64,000 bases of DNA from Candidatus Xenobia bacterium. GTDB lineage: Bacteria > Vulcanimicrobiota > Xenobia > Xenobiales > QWHO01. Location of the stretch: the NCBI GenBank assembly GCA_045863235.1, contig BTUM01000005.1, forward strand, positions 129,154 through 193,153, given 5' to 3'. Position numbers and translations under genes: made by a program. The notes below the pieces were generated by a model. It was not told where the DNA came from, made no database searches, and worked only from the letters and a program-made list of their open reading frames with translations. This document shows, one piece after another, positions 1-6,043 of this stretch (the stretch's first letter is position 1; each line of letters begins with the position of its first letter).

Positions 1-2
1 CC

Positions 3-1385
3 GCCACGTTCGGGCAGGGGCTCTTTCTGGTGGGAGGTTCGGGGGGTGTGATCCTGACCTCGCCCGACGGCGTCACCTGGACCCAGGCCGTGAGCGGTAC
101 GGGCAACATCCTCTGGGGAGCCACCTTCGCGCGTGGTCTGTTTGTGGTCAGCGGTCAGTTTGGGACCCTGTTGACCAGTCCGGACGGTCGGGCCTGGACC
201 GCTCGGCCCTCGGGGGTGAACAGCTTCCTGTGGCAGGTGATCGAAGGGCCGCCAGGGTTCGTGGCCGTGGGCGATCAGGGGGCCATCACCTTCTCACCGG
301 ATGGGATCAACTGGACGGCTCAGGCCTCACCAACGGGCGAGGTGCTGCGAGGCGTGACCTTCGGCCGGGGGGGATTCGTGGCCGCCGGCAGCCAGGGGAC
401 CTTGCTCGGGTCCGATGACGGTCGAGCCTTTCGCCTGCTGGACTCCCCGGTGGCCGACGTCCTCCGGGGCGTGACCTTTGCCGATGGCACCACCTATGTA
501 GCCGTCGGAGACGAGGGTACCATCTTGCTGTCTTATGATGGCCGGGACTTCTTCATCGACCAGACGGCCGACCCCGAGGAACTCTGGGCCACCACCTTCG
601 CCAACGGCATCTTCCTGGCCGGCGGGGGAGAGGGGAGGCTGCTCGTCTCGAGCGACGGCCAGAGCTGGCGCCGGATCGAGTCGGGCACGGCCGAGAACCT
701 CTATGCGGCTGCCTTCGGAAACGGGCGTTTCGTAATGGTCGGCTCGCGGGGAGCCATTCTGACCTCGACCGATGCCCTCACCTGGACGGCCGTGCCCTCT
801 CCGACGGACCAGAATCTCTACGGCCTGGCCTTTCTGAACGGCCTGTTCCTGGCCGGCGGCCTGGAAGGTACCCTTCTGACCAGCCCCGATGGCCTGACCT
901 GGACTTCGGTGGCGGTTCCCTCGGTCCACGCCCTGCACGGCTTTGCCTTCGGGAACGGGGTATTCGTGGAGGGCGGAGCGGGCAGCCTGTTGACCTCGCC
1001 CGATGCGGTGACCTGGACCGTCAATGCCGTGGGGATCGGGCACTTTCAGACCGCGGCCGCCTTCGGCAACGGGGTCTTCGCGGTGCCGGGCCACGTGGGC
1101 CGGGTGCTGGTCAGCGCCGATGGAGTCAACTGGAGCCTGGTGCTGGCCCCCACCCAGGCCAACCTGAACGCGGCCCTCTTTGCCGGGGGCCAGTTCCTTT
1201 TGGGCGCCCAGGGCGCGGTGCTGACCTCGAGCGATGCCAGTAGCTGGGCTCTCCACGCTGTGCCGACCGACCAGAACGTGCGCGGGCTGGCTTTCGGCAA
1301 CGGTCGTTACGTGGCCGTGGGGGGAGGGGAGGCTCTGCTCTTCTCGGTGGACGGGGTCCGCTGGGAGGCCGGGATCATCGAGTGA
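3..1385 (+). CDS. Beta-propeller repeat protein (Asp-box/BNR-like SxDGxxW repeats), 5' end outside the window
   Basis: About 11 repeats of roughly 40 aa (FGNGxFVAVGxxGxILTSxDGxTW); frame open to the left edge. Confidence 0.85.
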   Translation, partial: ATFGQGLFLVGGSGGVILTSPDGVTWTQAVSGTGNILWGATFARGLFVVSGQFGTLLTSPDGRAWTARPSGVNSFLWQVIEGPPGFVAVGDQGAITFSPDGINWTAQASPTGEVLRGVTFGRGGFVAAGSQGTLLGSDDGRAFRLLDSPVADVLRGVTFADGTTYVAVGDEGTILLSYDGRDFFIDQTADPEELWATTFANGIFLAGGGEGRLLVSSDGQSWRRIESGTAENLYAAAFGNGRFVMVGSRGAILTSTDALTWTAVPSPTDQNLYGLAFLNGLFLAGGLEGTLLTSPDGLTWTSVAVPSVHALHGFAFGNGVFVEGGAGSLLTSPDAVTWTVNAVGIGHFQTAAAFGNGVFAVPGHVGRVLVSADGVNWSLVLAPTQANLNAALFAGGQFLLGAQGAVLTSSDASSWALHAVPTDQNVRGLAFGNGRYVAVGGGEALLFSVDGVRWEAGIIE

Positions 1386-1386
1386 C

Positions 1387-1418
1387 CGGGCGAGAGGGCC
1401 CTTCGGCCCTCTCGCCCG
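1387..1418. terminator. GC-rich hairpin between the convergent propeller gene and the tRNA array
   Basis: Perfect 14-bp stem CGGGCGAGAGGGCC / GGCCCTCTCGCCCG with CTTC loop; no clear U tract. Confidence 0.6.
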
Positions 1419-1424
1419 TGGAAG

Positions 1425-1509
1425 TGGTATCCGGAGCCGGACTTGAACCGGCACGCCGCGAGGGCGCCAGCTTCTCGAGCTGACGTGTCTTCCATTCCAC
1501 CATCCGGAC
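1425..1509 (-). tRNA. tRNA-Leu(GAG), atypical anticodon loop (C33, A37)
   Basis: 85 nt; acceptor GTCCGGA/TCCGGAT, A73, encoded CCA; anticodon stem TCAGC/GCTGG, loop TCGAGAA; long variable arm; T loop TTCAAGT. Confidence 0.88.
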
Positions 1510-1526
1510 AAGAGCGGTCGACAGAT

Positions 1527-1603
1527 TGGCGACCCTGGCGAGACTTGAACTCGCTACCCCCGGCTTCGTAGACCGGTGCTCTGATCCATTGAGCTACAGG
1601 GTC
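1527..1603 (-). tRNA. tRNA-Arg(ACG)
   Basis: 77 nt; acceptor GACCCTG/CAGGGTC, G73, CCA; anticodon arm CCGGT-CTACGAA-GCCGG. Confidence 0.95.
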
Positions 1604-1609
1604 ATTGAC

Positions 1610-1685
1610 TGGCAGACGCGGATGGCCTCGAACCACCGACCTTTGCGTTCAGAGCGCAACGTTCTTCCTGCTGAACTACGCGTCT
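1610..1685 (-). tRNA. tRNA-Gln(CUG), atypical A1-U72 pair
   Basis: 76 nt; acceptor AGACGCG/CGCGTCT, G73, CCA; anticodon arm TTGCG-CTCTGAA-CGCAA. Confidence 0.9.
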
Positions 1686-1720
1686 ATATATTCCTATTTA
1701 TTGTTGAATAGGAATAAAAA

Positions 1721-1797
1721 TGGTAGGCTCGGAGAGATTCGAACTCTCAAGCACCTGCTTCTGAAACAGGTCTGTCTTCCAATTGCAGCACGAGCCC
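1721..1797 (-). tRNA. tRNA-Leu(CAG) with short variable loop and A37
   Basis: 77 nt; acceptor GGGCTCG/CGAGCCT, A73, CCA; anticodon arm CCTGT-TTCAGAA-GCAGG; 5-nt variable loop TGCTT; Leu-type D arm with A15:U48. Confidence 0.88.
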
Positions 1798-1843
1798 GGG
1801 TGGAGTTCCTGGCTGACTCTCTAAGGAACGCGATTCAGGGCTG

Positions 1844-1877
1844 AAAAGTAGAAACCACCGGAGTGAGCTCGCGGTGG
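1844..1877 (-). terminator. Intrinsic terminator (attenuator) between the leader peptide and the tRNA array
   Basis: Minus strand CCACCG-C-GAG-CTCA-CTC-CGGTGG followed by TTTCTACTTTT. Confidence 0.8.
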
Positions 1878-1907
1878 GTGGGGGAGAGGCCGGTCCTGGA
1901 AGCTGGA

Positions 1908-1979
1908 CTAGGCGCTCGTGCCACCCCCGCGGCGGCGAAGCAGAAGGCCCTGGCGTTGACGAAGCTGCGGTCGTAGCAT
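1908..1979 (-). CDS. Putative attenuator leader peptide MLRPQLRQRQGLLLRRRGGGTSA (23 aa)
   Basis: AGGAGG at 1993-1988, 8 nt before ATG; codons ATG CTA CGA CCG CAG CTT CGT CAA CGC CAG GGC CTT CTG CTT CGC CGC CGC GGG GGT GGC ACG AGC GCC TAG; too short for the ORF track. Confidence 0.8.
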   Translation of the reverse strand: MLRPQLRQRQGLLLRRRGGGTSA

Positions 1980-2030
1980 GATGATGGCCTCCTGTCTTTG
2001 TGTGGTCGCTCGGTTGGAGCTGACCCGGTC

Positions 2031-2060
2031 ATTATAGGCGAGTCAGGGCGGTGGCGTCAA
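2031..2060 (-). promoter_or_regulatory. Sigma70-type promoter of the leader/tRNA operon
   Basis: TTGACG (2060-2055), 18 nt, TATAAT (2036-2031); AT-rich UP-like tract at about 2064-2090. Confidence 0.85.
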
Positions 2061-2135
2061 CCCTTAAATAGGAAAAATTAGAAATTTTGACAGCAAGCTA
2101 TGGTAGATTTCCGAAGAATCTGTCTTCCAGTATTG

Positions 2136-2456
2136 TCAGTTCCAACGGGTGGCAGCCGCCCAGAAGCCGACGATCAGGAAAGCTTCGGCCATACCGGCCA
2201 CCAGATTGAGCAGCAGGGCCACGACGGCGGTCGGCCTGGATGATTCGCGAATGAGAGCAAGGATGGCCAGCACCATGCCCGCCAGGTGCACCACCGGCCC
2301 GGCCAGGAAGGCCAGCAGCAGTCCGGCGCCCATGGGGTCGCCAAGGGCCCTGGTCGGACTCGGCAGCTCGACCACCAGCATCGTCCACAGGGCCAGCAGG
2401 GCTGGATATCCCAGGCCCAGCAAGAGGGCCATACGGCCGAGCTTTGGCGCTTTCAT
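2136..2456 (-). CDS. Small membrane protein (about 3 TM helices)
   Basis: Hydrophobic ORF; ATG at 2456 chosen, TTG at 2501 possible. Confidence 0.65.
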   Translation of the reverse strand: MKAPKLGRMALLLGLGYPALLALWTMLVVELPSPTRALGDPMGAGLLLAFLAGPVVHLAGMVLAILALIRESSRPTAVVALLLNLVAGMAEAFLIVGFWAAATRWN

Positions 2457-2705
2457 GGAGGTGGTTTTCAGAGCTGGAGGGCTTTCCCCTTTCTTGCTCA
2501 ATGAATTTTATTCAATGTCACGACGGGCGCTCAGAACCATTGCGACGGTTTGGTTGAGGGTACCGTCTGCTCAGGGCGGTCAGCCCGGAAAGGTCCACCG
2601 TTCTGCAGGGCGTTACCGTTCCCACCGGGGGGGGGCAGGCTTTTTGTGTTGGCGATCCGGGCTTGTGCTGAAGGGCCCCGAGGGTTGGGCCTTGAAGGCC
2701 GAACG

Positions 2706-4043
2706 GTGACCCTCGCCTCTCCACCGCTGGCTGGTTTCCATGTGATGACCAAGCCAACCGGGCCCATCTGCAACCTCGACTGCAAGTACTGCTTCTATCT
2801 CGAGAAAGAGCGCCTCTACCCGCCCGGGACCGACTGGCGCATGGCCCCCGAGACGCTCGAGTCCTTCATCAAGCAGCACATCGAGGCCCATTCCGTGCCC
2901 GAGGTGATCTTCGCCTGGCAGGGCGGCGAGCCCACGCTACTGGGCGTGGACTACTTTCGCCTGGCGGTCGAGTTGCAGAAGAAATACGCCGGGGGCAAGC
3001 GCATCCAGAACGCGTTTCAGACCAACGGGGTGCTGCTCGACGACGAGTGGTGCGGCTTTTTCAAAGAGAACGGCTTCCTGGTGGGCATCTCGATCGACGG
3101 GCCGGAGGCTCTGCACGACCACTATCGGGTGGATCGGGGCGGCAAACCCAGCTTCAAGCGTGTCATGCGCGGGCTGGAGGCCCTCACGCGCAACCAGGTC
3201 GACTTCAACACCCTGACCGTGGTCAACCGGGCCAACCAGGACCATCCGCTCGAGGTTTATCGCTTCCTCAAAGAGATAGGCAGCCTGGTGATGCAGTTCA
3301 TCCCCCTGGTCGAGCGGCTGACCGATCAGCCCGACCCGCTGGTCATGGTTTCCCCCGAGCACAAGGGGGAGGCCCACGTGGCCGACTGGTCGGTCCAGGC
3401 CGAGCCCTACGGGCGTTTTCTGTGCGCCATCTTCGATGAATGGGTGCGTCAGGACGTGGGCAAGCACTTCGTGCAGCTGTTTGACATCACGCTCGAGTCG
3501 TTCATGGGCATGCCCCAGAGCCTGTGCTGGTTCCGGGAGACCTGCGGGGCGGCCCTGGCCCTGGAGCATAACGGCGATCTTTACTCCTGCGACCATTTCG
3601 TCTATCCCGAGAACCGGTTGGGAAACATCATGCAAGAGCCGCTGGTGGCCCTGATCCACTCGGCCCAACAACACAAGTTCGGCCAGGACAAGAAGGACAC
3701 TCTGCCCCGCTACTGCCGCGAGTGTGACGTACGCTTCGCCTGCAACGGCGAGTGCCCCAAGCACCGCTTTCATCGCACTCCGGACGGCGAGGAGGGCCTC
3801 AACTACCTGTGTGCCGGCTACATGCGCTTCTTTCGGCATGTCGAGCCCTACATGCGCTTTATGGCCGCAATGCTGAAACGACGCCAGCCTCCGGCCCACG
3901 TGATGCGCTTTGCTCCCGAGCTGGAGGCGGCCTTTGCCCGGACCGGGCCGGACCAGCCCTGCCCCTGCCGCGCCGGGCGGCCCTATGAGCTTTGTTGCGG
4001 GAGAACCCGCCTTGAGAACATGAAAGGGAGAAAGGACAGATAA
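2706..4043 (+). CDS. Anaerobic sulfatase maturase (radical SAM/SPASM) with C-terminal SEC-C motif
   Basis: CNLDCKYC, WQGGEP, YSCDHFV, CRECDVRFACNGECPK, CPCRAGRPYELCCG; adjacent to a sulfatase. Confidence 0.95.
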   Translation: MTLASPPLAGFHVMTKPTGPICNLDCKYCFYLEKERLYPPGTDWRMAPETLESFIKQHIEAHSVPEVIFAWQGGEPTLLGVDYFRLAVELQKKYAGGKRIQNAFQTNGVLLDDEWCGFFKENGFLVGISIDGPEALHDHYRVDRGGKPSFKRVMRGLEALTRNQVDFNTLTVVNRANQDHPLEVYRFLKEIGSLVMQFIPLVERLTDQPDPLVMVSPEHKGEAHVADWSVQAEPYGRFLCAIFDEWVRQDVGKHFVQLFDITLESFMGMPQSLCWFRETCGAALALEHNGDLYSCDHFVYPENRLGNIMQEPLVALIHSAQQHKFGQDKKDTLPRYCRECDVRFACNGECPKHRFHRTPDGEEGLNYLCAGYMRFFRHVEPYMRFMAAMLKRRQPPAHVMRFAPELEAAFARTGPDQPCPCRAGRPYELCCGRTRLENMKGRKDR

Positions 4044-4045
4044 CC

Positions 4046-6043
4046 ATGGACGGCAACATCACCAGGCGCGACCTTCTGGGTGCGGGACTCGCGACTCTGG
4101 CCGGAGCGGCTCTGGGCCCGGCCATCCTGACGGCGGGCTGCACGACCGGAGCCGGCGACCCCGGGCCTGCCACCGGCGGCGTTCCCGAAGAGGCCACCCG
4201 GCGACGACCCAATATCCTGCTGGTATTGTGCGACGAGTTCCGATTTCCGGGTCAGTATCCGGCGGGCACGGGCGAGGCTCCGGGCCTGCGAGAGATCTTC
4301 GGCTTCGCGCCCACGCTCTCGCCTGACAATCCCTTCACCGCCCTCTTTCCTGGTATGACCAGGCTGCGCCAGAACGCTGTCGTGCTGCGAACTCACTACA
4401 TCGCTTCGGCAGCCTGCGTGCCCAGTCGGGCCACCATGCTGACCGGACAGTACCCCACCGTGCACGGAGTCACCAGCACCACCGGCTTTTTCAAGAGCGG
4501 CGACGACCCGGGCTTCGTGTTCCTGGACCCGGACGGCATCCCTACCGCCGGGGACTGGTTTCAGGCGGCCGGCTACGAGACGTACTACTTCGGCAAGTGG
4601 CACGTTTCCGAGACCTGCGACGACCTGGGTCCATGGGGCTTCCCCTTCGCTGCCTGGGATGGCCCTGAGCCGCACGGCTCGGATCCGGCCAACCTGGGAG
4701 TCTATCGCGATCCGGAGTTTGCCAGCAACACCATCAGCTTCCTTAACTCCAAGGCCGGGCAGCAGCCTGGAGAGGCGCCCTGGTTCGCGGTGACCTCCTA
4801 TCTCGCGCCTCACGACGTCTCGGGTTGGCCGCTGCAGTGGTTCCTCCCCGGGGACGTCGGGGTCCAGCCCTTCCCCGGTCCGCTCGTGATCCCGCCCATA
4901 CCTGGGGCGGGGGCCATCAGCAATGCCGCCACCTCGACCAGCCAGAACAGCGATTGTCCACCGCCCATCTCGGGCCCGGTCCCTCTCAACCCGGGTGGCT
5001 ACCCGCCCGGTGCCTTCACGACGCCGCCCACCTTTGCCGAGGACCTGAGCACCAAGCCCCAGTGCCAGCTCGACATGTCCTTCAAGATCGGGCTCTGTCA
5101 GAAGTCCATCCTGCCGGCTCCGCTGCGGCCCCTGGCCCCAAATCCGTTCCAGCTGCAGGGAGCCGACTACCAGGCCTGGGCCACGGCCTACGGCGAGTGG
5201 TGGTACTACCTTCACTACCTCTTCGACACCCAGCTCACGCGGGTGCTTCAGACCCTGGATGCGACCGGGCTGCGCGAGAACACCATCGTCATCTTCACCT
5301 GCGACCACGGCGATTACGCCGGGGCCCACGGCGGTCAGGTCCAGAAGTGGCACTCGGCCTATGAGGAGGCCACTCACGTGCCGATGGTGGTGTCTTCTCC
5401 GCTGATCAACCCCACCGATACGATCCGCGAGTTCACCATGCCCACCAGCCACATCGACCTGTTGCCCACCCTATTGGGGCTGGCCGGCTTCAATCAGGCC
5501 CAGCAGTCCGAGCTGAAGGGGCGCATCACCGGCCAGGGCGTCGTGCCCGACCTGGTGGGCACGGACCTGAGCGGCTACCTGGCCGAGCCTGGCACCACCA
5601 CGCCCATTCCCGGGCACGATGGGAATCCGCGGCCCGGAGTTTTGTTCATCACCGAGGACGAGATCAGCCAGATGACCTCGATCGACCCCAACAACTCTGG
5701 CTTCCCGGCCTTCGAGACTTTCCTCCGGCTGGTCGAGGAGGCCCGCCTCGGGCCGGCTCCCCAGCTCGCCCCCGGGCCGATCCGTCAGCCCAATCTGGTG
5801 CGCACCCTGACCGATGGGGTGTGGAAATACTCGCGCTACTACGATCCCAACGGGGTGGAAGCGGACCAGCACGAGTTTTACAATCTGGCCTCCGACCCCA
5901 TCGAGGCGGTTAACCTGGTCGACTTCCGCACCAACCAGATCCGTCCGGGGGTGGCCGTGCCGGGCTTGACACAGGCAGAGCTGACCGCCCGGCTCAACTT
6001 GATGGTGCAGCAGTTGGCCCAGCAAGAGGCGTTGTTACTCTAA
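4046..6043 (+). CDS. Cys-type sulfatase, Tat-exported lipoprotein
   Basis: TRRDLL Tat motif, lipobox TAGC, CVPSRATMLTG signature, GKWH, DHG. Confidence 0.92.
   Translation: MDGNITRRDLLGAGLATLAGAALGPAILTAGCTTGAGDPGPATGGVPEEATRRRPNILLVLCDEFRFPGQYPAGTGEAPGLREIFGFAPTLSPDNPFTALFPGMTRLRQNAVVLRTHYIASAACVPSRATMLTGQYPTVHGVTSTTGFFKSGDDPGFVFLDPDGIPTAGDWFQAAGYETYYFGKWHVSETCDDLGPWGFPFAAWDGPEPHGSDPANLGVYRDPEFASNTISFLNSKAGQQPGEAPWFAVTSYLAPHDVSGWPLQWFLPGDVGVQPFPGPLVIPPIPGAGAISNAATSTSQNSDCPPPISGPVPLNPGGYPPGAFTTPPTFAEDLSTKPQCQLDMSFKIGLCQKSILPAPLRPLAPNPFQLQGADYQAWATAYGEWWYYLHYLFDTQLTRVLQTLDATGLRENTIVIFTCDHGDYAGAHGGQVQKWHSAYEEATHVPMVVSSPLINPTDTIREFTMPTSHIDLLPTLLGLAGFNQAQQSELKGRITGQGVVPDLVGTDLSGYLAEPGTTTPIPGHDGNPRPGVLFITEDEISQMTSIDPNNSGFPAFETFLRLVEEARLGPAPQLAPGPIRQPNLVRTLTDGVWKYSRYYDPNGVEADQHEFYNLASDPIEAVNLVDFRTNQIRPGVAVPGLTQAELTARLNLMVQQLAQQEALLL

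Follow-up and report, generated by a model that had tools for sequence, protein, structure and literature searches.

A leader ORF and a terminator-like hairpin precede four tRNA genes

The window analysed here is a stretch of 64,000 nucleotides (nt) from Candidatus Xenobia bacterium (GenBank assembly GCA_045863235.1, contig BTUM01000005.1, positions 129,154 to 193,153 of the forward strand). On its minus strand, near the start of the window, a promoter and a short open reading frame (ORF) rich in leucine, arginine and glutamine codons are followed by a terminator-like hairpin and four tRNA genes. A preliminary description, made from the sequence alone, had read this arrangement as a leader-peptide attenuator that controls tRNAs. 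The promoter, AGGAGG, 23-codon ORF, antiterminator/terminator pair and four tRNAs that it had listed were all found at the positions and on the strand given there. The parts of the locus, with a further hairpin after the array, are:

2031-2060, minus strand: sigma-70-type promoter, TTGACG (2060-2055), 18-nt spacer, TATAAT (2036-2031); 11 of 12 consensus positions
1988-1993, minus strand: Shine-Dalgarno sequence AGGAGG, 8 nt 5′ of the ATG
1908-1979, minus strand: leader ORF, 23 codons and TAG; peptide MLRPQLRQRQGLLLRRRGGGTSA
1921-1931, minus strand: antiterminator 5′ strand CGCGGGGGTGG, within leader codons 17-20
1870-1881, minus strand: antiterminator 3′ strand CCACCCACCGCG, overlapping the 5′ arm of the terminator
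1844-1877, minus strand: intrinsic-terminator-like hairpin (1877-1855) and U-rich tract UUUCUACUUUU (1854-1844)
1721-1797, minus strand: tRNA-Leu(CAG), 77 nt, class I, 5-nt variable loop, A37, encoded CCA
1610-1685, minus strand: tRNA-Gln(CUG), A1-U72, A37
1527-1603, minus strand: tRNA-Arg(ACG), A37
1425-1509, minus strand: tRNA-Leu(GAG), 85 nt, class II, A37
1388-1417, minus strand: G+C-rich 13-bp hairpin without U tract, directly after the array and common to the convergent gene that ends at 1385

The four tRNAs were called by ARAGORN and scored 46.5-65 bits with the Rfam tRNA model. They were the only matches above threshold in an Rfam scan of positions 1-6000 (E up to 10), which gave no leader or cis-regulatory family at the locus; in the same interval and at the same E limit, the T-box covariance model found no match. 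A promoter scan of 1-6000 listed 2 promoter-like sites, compared to 0.5 expected from shuffled sequences. The sole one on the minus strand is that at 2060-2031, and none lies between the terminator and the tRNAs. A 65-codon ORF (2032-1835) overlaps the leader in another frame; it was set aside because its start lies inside the -10 box.

Recounting leader codons 2-17 gave 5 Leu, 6 Arg, 3 Gln and 1 Pro, as the preliminary description had it, with 1 Gly as the remaining codon. Leu, Gln and Arg together make up 14 of 22 leader residues, against about 26% expected.

Two A+T-rich elements were noted in addition. An inverted repeat, ATTCCTATT...AATAGGAAT, occupies 1690-1715 (minus strand), between the first and second tRNAs, and two genomes of the same genus have conserved it (G001 and G002, see below). 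It may bind a protein or fold into a hairpin for processing. A similar A+T-rich sequence, TTTTCCTATTT, adjoins the -35 box at 2061-2083 (minus strand).

Two mutually exclusive helices are predicted in the leader RNA

Folded alone, the hairpin 1877-1855 (dG -12.8) has a stem of 9 bp, interrupted by one bulge, and the loop CUCA. The competing helix announced for this leader, 11 bp between 1931-1921 and 1881-1870 with one bulged A, overlaps the 5′ arm of the terminator and is part of the minimum-energy fold of the leader (-78.6 kcal/mol, z -2.29). We then folded the RNA with the expected ribosome footprint masked. With the ORF and 12 nt masked, mimicking a ribosome at the stop codon, the terminator hairpin was obtained for both the window genome (G000) and G001, and in G000 it appeared only under this mask. 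With nt 1-30 or 1-48 masked, corresponding to codon 6 or 12 in the A site, the 11-bp antiterminator formed in both genomes and the terminator did not. These folds are in favour of the switch that had been proposed. In the untranslated fold, the Shine-Dalgarno sequence AGGAGGCC also pairs with GGCCUUCU of codons 11-13 (1942-1993, minus strand), which could add a layer of control on leader translation.

A search of the genome for sequence-similar hairpins returned 309 hairpins, 12 of them with a T-rich tail, and was uninformative about terminator function.

The leader ORF is conserved on par with the tRNAs

The whole locus is present in the two same-genus genomes G001 and G002, with 90% and 87% identity, respectively, and the Shine-Dalgarno sequence and its spacing are the same in both. 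Identity to G000 is distributed as follows:

Leader ORF: G001 72/72 nt (100%); G002 70/72 nt (97%)
tRNAs: G001 97-99%; G002 92-100%; Leu(CAG) 99% in both
Promoter: G001 90%; G002 80%
Terminator: G001 94%; G002 82%
Adjacent coding gene: G001 78%; G002 87%
Stop-to-terminator spacer: G001 83%; G002 48%
Terminator-to-tRNA spacer: G001 61%; G002 26%

In both relatives the leader ORF is therefore conserved to the same degree as the tRNAs and above its flanks. The lack of a conserved leader in homologous arrays, named beforehand as a refutation, is not what these genomes show. The two changes in the G002 leader are P to L and G to R.

A more distant genome of the same genus, G004, carries its own version of the locus, with its own promoter, a leader MKNALQLRLRRFVHLRHLRPEGEHSA and a 10-bp terminator abutting a class I tRNA-Leu(CAG) (91% identical). 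Its array runs Leu(CAG), Arg(ACG), His(GUG), Leu(GAG); a tRNA-Gln is missing. The leader has changed in parallel: it holds 3 His and 1 Gln, compared to 0 His and 3 Gln in the window. In G035, from another family, a leader MKTRCNQRLRLLTGGEPGR and a terminator stand before two class I tRNA-Leu genes.

The G004 locus (L004) has two peculiarities of its own. Inside the array, a permuted tRNA-like stretch (1662-1728, plus strand) resembles YrlA (Y RNA-like) at 37.6 bits (E 1.2e-5), under the gathering score of 69. Its tRNA-Arg(ACG) (1773-1874, plus strand) reaches 102 nt through an insertion of about 26 bases in the variable region, and scores 51 bits with Rfam while not being called by ARAGORN.

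A metagenome scan for close relatives of the class I tRNA-Leu(CAG) yielded 4 loci, two identical to the G001 type and two in other arrays with a long-arm Leu(CAG), a set of variants too small for helix covariation. One of the latter two, on metagenome contig L148 (572-1117), has a Leu-rich leader, MSMAFTTSLLLRLLTQAPRAAAA, and a strong terminator in front of five class II Leu tRNAs (AAG, CAG, CAG, UAG, GAG); the design is thus not tied to the armless tRNA-Leu.

Leaders with terminators recur at the heads of tRNA arrays in several phyla

A pattern search of species-representative genomes found class I tRNAs with Leu anticodons at at least 120 loci. Among the loci listed, nearly all lie inside tRNA arrays, in cyanobacteria, Bacteroidota, Proteobacteria, Acidobacteriota, Planctomycetota, Chloroflexota and Firmicutes. 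Class I tRNA-Leu is a hallmark of horizontally spread tRNA arrays.

To the heads of such arrays we applied a fixed rule that takes no account of leader composition: an ATG ORF of 10-48 codons ending 5-50 nt before a hairpin (dG -9 or lower) with a T-run, all within 280 nt of the first tRNA. The sample comprised 83 heads with at least 200 nt upstream, 80 from the class I Leu scan together with G000, G004 and G035. An ORF and hairpin fitting the rule were found at 39 of the 83. Among random 280-nt stretches only 9 of 600 fitted, and among the tRNA cluster heads of G000 only 2 of 41, namely the window locus and a tRNA-Pro(UGG) gene on contig C12. An earlier, looser version of the rule allowed -6 to 100 nt between stop codon and hairpin, and with it most gaps were already 18-30 nt; the later median of 26 arises partly by construction. 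Carriers of the design that are in culture include Variovorax, Flavobacterium, Aquimarina and Xanthocytophaga.

The C12 gene (70278-70776, minus strand), one of two for tRNA-Pro(UGG) in the genome, follows a 42-codon ORF with 8 Pro, and a -35 kcal/mol hairpin ends 9 nt 5′ of the tRNA.

Leader composition follows array content

Examples of leaders, with the tRNAs that follow them, are:

MILHFIQPQQLRPQSEEGDNYA: tRNAs Pro-Gln-His-Leu-Arg-Phe
MSNPQADLWPCDYQDQVQPGGGRA: tRNAs Leu-Pro-Trp-Gln-Asp-Tyr-Cys-Asn
MNTAAFLSSSLSSLSPATAGEMPV: tRNAs Ser-Leu-Leu
MQNFLSLSSSLSSLGSGVG: tRNAs Leu-Leu-Leu-Ser-Ser
MSMAFTTSLLLRLLTQAPRAAAA: five Leu tRNAs

The composition of each leader was scored against the centred presence vector of its array, using one representative per leader family. 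The true pairing of leaders and arrays beat 20,000 of 20,000 permutations, both for the 20 complete arrays (z 5.0) and for the 28 obtained when truncated arrays were included (z 5.4). Permuting within A+T-rich and G+C-rich strata still gave z 4.45, and 0 of 20,000 permutations reached the observed score. Leucine adds nothing to this score, since every array has Leu by ascertainment.

The position of the alternative pairing is also shared. When each leader was folded up to the end of the 5′ arm of the terminator, 20 of 28 families had that arm paired (at least 5 nt) with a segment wholly between 30 and 3 nt from the end of the ORF. From dinucleotide shuffles 3.1 families would be expected, and 200,000 simulations reached at most 14. 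In the window the helix lies at -24 to -18 relative to the ORF end. Pairing near the ORF end, as predicted by these folds, is the placement required by the attenuation model. Per-locus shuffles of antiterminator energy were dropped as evidence: they were mostly not significant singly, and only the shared pairing position was.

At the level of codons the picture is different. The preliminary description had pointed out that 12 of 15 leader codons are read by the array. The count is correct, but it is no better than chance given the amino acids: under genome codon usage the array anticodons could read 91% of the codons for Leu, 64% of those for Arg and 83% of those for Gln. Codon-level matching was consequently dropped as evidence. 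The richness in CNN codons was likewise dropped as a strong statistic, in view of the number of such runs genome-wide (see below). Rare Leu codons are favoured in the leader: three are CTT, which accounts for 12% of Leu codons, and one is CTA (2%). The leader signal sits at the amino-acid level and not at the codon level.

The array tRNAs are supernumerary and differ from the housekeeping copies

The genome holds 62 tRNA genes in total, and each array anticodon has a second, canonical gene elsewhere: Leu(CAG), 87 nt and class II, and Leu(GAG) on contig C27, Arg(ACG) on C56 and Gln(CUG) on C3. Array and housekeeping copies share just 47-58 identical positions. The array is thus supernumerary, and the case that these might be the only genomic copies of the four isoacceptors, which would have spoken against the proposed feedback, does not apply.

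The array tRNA-Leu(CAG) is of class I, with a Leu-type D arm, G1-U72, A73 and its 5-nt variable loop. Its charging is plausible, since a short-variable-loop type I tRNA-Leu(CAA) of Streptomyces coelicolor is reported to be leucylated by the single LeuRS (Fan et al. 2019, PMC6614811). The Streptomyces tRNA has another anticodon, belongs to another lineage and has no array or leader context.

All four array tRNAs read CNN codons and carry A37-A38. By comparison, G37 is present in all 14 housekeeping tRNAs of G000 with G36 (contigs C3, C12, C13, C27, C32, C56, C67, C70 and C108), two odd ARAGORN calls (93 and 95 nt) having been left out of the comparison. A G37 that follows G36 is the site of m1G37 formation by TrmD. 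Among the Pro(UGG) genes of other arrays, 30 carry A37 and 23 carry G37; the position-37 counts for Leu are biased by the search pattern. The array His(GUG) of G004 keeps G37.

The distribution of the class I tRNA-Leu(CAG) is patchy: the scan detected it in 5 of 40 genomes from the order, counting G000 (3 of 4 others in family f1, 1 of 16 in f2 and 0 of 19 in f3; some genomes are incomplete). Class I Leu(CAG) tRNAs of other phyla are identical to that of the window at no more than 63 of 77 positions, and there is therefore no sign of recent cross-phylum transfer. Through its class I tRNA-Leu hallmark, the four-gene array is a short relative of the L-arrays, and not an L-array proper, which has tens of genes.

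Public RNA libraries cover the locus

Part of the stretch is contained, in all cases as contigs, in 18 public runs, among them six RNA libraries, four of which were compared over 1200-2400. In X16, a single 621-nt contig (90-95% alike) is confined to 2009 to about 1417. Two contigs were found in X4, at 1983-1558 and 1587-1406, and one in X13, at 1620-1407; the coverage by X13 and X18 is partial. Leader, hairpin and tRNAs are joined on contigs of two RNA libraries, and contigs of three stop at 1406, 1407 and about 1417, in or just before the 13-bp hairpin 1388-1417.

A probable ribosome-mediated attenuator with tRNAs as output

Taken together, these results make it likely that the locus is a ribosome-mediated (leader-peptide) transcription attenuator with a supernumerary tRNA array as output. 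We infer that transcription begins at the 2060-2031 promoter and that the 23-codon leader is translated. A ribosome passing the Leu/Arg/Gln-rich codons 2-14 and reaching the stop would cover 1931-1921, so that the hairpin 1877-1855 could form and polymerase would halt before the tRNAs. If the ribosome stalled on codons 2-14 for want of a usable matching tRNA, 1931-1921 would be free to pair with 1881-1870. This pairing would use up the 5′ arm of the terminator, and polymerase would enter Leu(CAG), Gln(CUG), Arg(ACG) and Leu(GAG). The feedback that had been proposed, in which stalling frees the antiterminator and turns on replacement tRNAs, is supported by the comparative evidence, namely a recurrent architecture whose leader composition tracks the array.

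Extra tRNA is no cure for amino-acid starvation. The likeliest trigger would therefore be the loss or damage of usable housekeeping tRNAs, or a general slowing of decoding. Such a trigger would fit the array of Anabaena: impaired translation induces it, and the tRNAs that it encodes are charged (PMC8421152). A more far-reaching reading, which we regard as rather doubtful, is that the locus belongs to a cross-phylum class of self-referential attenuators that respond to failing tRNAs of the cell by making replacements of a different build. In this reading, given A37 in all four replacements, compared to the housekeeping G37, and one armless tRNA-Leu, the circuit might, beyond topping up tRNA, bypass a lost anticodon-loop modification, or toxins and nucleases that recognize the housekeeping anticodon loop or the long arm.

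A number of observations weigh against the attenuation mechanism set out above. Some concern the switch itself. The untranslated RNA folds into the antiterminator, making read-through the default; for termination, a ribosome would thus have to be translating the leader. The folds showed no trp-like 1:2 pause helix that could synchronize ribosome and polymerase. The antiterminator is weak or absent in G002, G004 and G035, where the minimum-energy fold retains the terminator in every masked state: in G004 just a 6-bp helix, read by eye, reaches the first 4 nt of the terminator, and in G035 no antiterminator helix into the terminator was found. The terminator-like hairpin of the window is modest in energy, has an interrupted U tract and was missed by a strict terminator scan; the terminators of G002, G004 and other families are stronger. 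The Arg codons 15-17 would be unproductive as stall sites, because they lie beside or inside the antiterminator strand.

Other such observations concern the leader as a sensor and the comparative evidence. Besides the chance-level codon match, the array does not read the leader codons CTA, CAA and CCG, and runs with 15 of 16 CNN codons occur in 397 regions among 16.7 million windows of this G+C-rich genome. Leu-only arrays have leaders that are only moderately Leu-rich, with 3-6 Leu per 19-26 codons. The leader families used in the permutations were merged by eye after clustering and may share ancestry. At 44 of 83 array heads no match to the rule was found: 21 were set aside ahead of the rule for want of an ATG ORF of 12-45 codons, and 23 have an ORF that fails the rule. 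G004 is among the 21, its ORF being extended to 62 codons by an ATG further upstream in the same frame. Three cyanobacterial heads (L027, L035 and L103) have no leader by the rule, and control of the Anabaena array is ascribed to direct repeats that span the -10 box and start site, and to a putative repressor (PMC8421152). Finally, the RNA-library contigs hint only weakly at a common RNA for leader and tRNAs, as they show neither ends nor strand nor levels and DNA is possible in the libraries.

Part of this evidence could be accommodated by a general sensor of translation stress, opened by any slowing of the ribosome (antibiotics, ribosome damage, low elongation capacity) and similar to antibiotic-inducible leader peptides, with codon content secondary. 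The chance-level codon match in the window would suit such a sensor, as would the leaders of large arrays, which use nearly all amino acids, and the induction of the Anabaena array by translation inhibitors (PMC8421152). However, leader amino acids follow the tRNA set of each array, and the leader shifts with the array even inside one genus, with His for Gln in G004, which a generic sensor would not need. We consider this explanation unlikely. The ORF could also be fortuitous: the 230 nt before the tRNAs would then be no more than the usual 5′ leader of a precursor, the hairpin would serve structure or processing, and a strong promoter would drive the array constitutively. Chance ORFs and CNN-rich runs are common in G+C-rich genomes, a 65-codon ORF overlaps in another frame, the terminator is weak and RNA-library contigs run through the hairpin. 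Against this stand the conservation of the ORF (100% and 97%) like that of the tRNAs while flanks drift, the excess of ORF and terminator at array heads (39 of 83, compared to 9 of 600 random stretches), and the composition and pairing statistics, all of which speak against chance and leave such an origin highly improbable. Control might instead be exerted mainly by a protein binding A+T-rich TTCCTATT-type motifs beside the -35 box and in the first tRNA spacer, with the leader as an accessory. The motif TTTTCCTATTTAAGGG indeed adjoins the -35 box, the ATTCCTATT/AATAGGAAT inverted repeat (1715-1690) is conserved in G000, G001 and G002, and the promoter repeats of the Anabaena array offer a precedent (PMC8421152). 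Yet no regulator gene was identified next to the array, and a protein regulator leaves the ORF, its composition and the alternative helices unexplained; we give it very little weight as the main control.

If leader-peptide attenuation does govern this array, a direct feedback on tRNA supply would be added to bacterial physiology, and the way in which silent, horizontally acquired tRNA arrays get turned on would be explained. The leader would then be a readable label of what each array is meant to rescue, and a link with tRNA-targeting toxins, phage defence and modification stress could be tested. The cultured carriers of the design make experiments feasible.

Comparison with known systems

Leader-peptide attenuation is the textbook control of amino-acid synthesis (trpL, hisL, leuL, pheL, thrL, ilvL). 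The enterobacterial attenuators share with the window a promoter, a short translated ORF with clustered regulatory codons, and mutually exclusive antiterminator and terminator helices between which the position of the ribosome decides; translation of the window ORF and termination at its hairpin are presumed here. Their output is biosynthetic enzymes, whereas that of the window is tRNA genes, such that tRNA supply would be sensed and answered with tRNA. The window design further differs in having two helices, a predicted default of ON without translation, no 1:2 pause helix seen and no match to an Rfam leader family. Multivalent attenuators such as the ilvGMEDA leader (Ile/Leu/Val) and the thr leader (Thr/Ile) sample several amino acids at once. 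In the window, by contrast, the sampled set is the downstream tRNA set, and it changes with that set between relatives.

Components of the translation apparatus are also known to be under related controls. The pheST operon of E. coli has a leader-peptide attenuator (pheM), with a tRNA synthetase and not tRNAs as output. T-box riboswitches couple tRNA status to terminator read-through upstream of translation-related genes, but they bind uncharged tRNA directly and need no ribosome or ORF, and no T-box was matched in 1-6000 of the window. In full-text literature searches, with subscription journals largely outside their reach, we found no account of leader-peptide attenuation of tRNA genes. The comparative data support the view that the window would combine a known mechanism, ribosome-mediated attenuation, with a new output, supernumerary tRNAs, the leader mirroring that output.

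A close known counterpart is the L-array (trn operon) of Anabaena sp. PCC 7120, which is reported to be normally silent and induced when translation is impaired, with 23 of its 26 tRNAs aminoacylated in vivo (Santamaria-Gomez et al. 2021, PMC8421152). The terms attenuat-, leader and terminator do not appear in that paper. The Anabaena array differs from that of the window in its size, 26 genes compared to 4, and in its control by promoter repeats. Both are supernumerary and horizontally spread, and class I tRNA-Leu occurs in like cyanobacterial arrays, for example in Nostoc and Calothrix.

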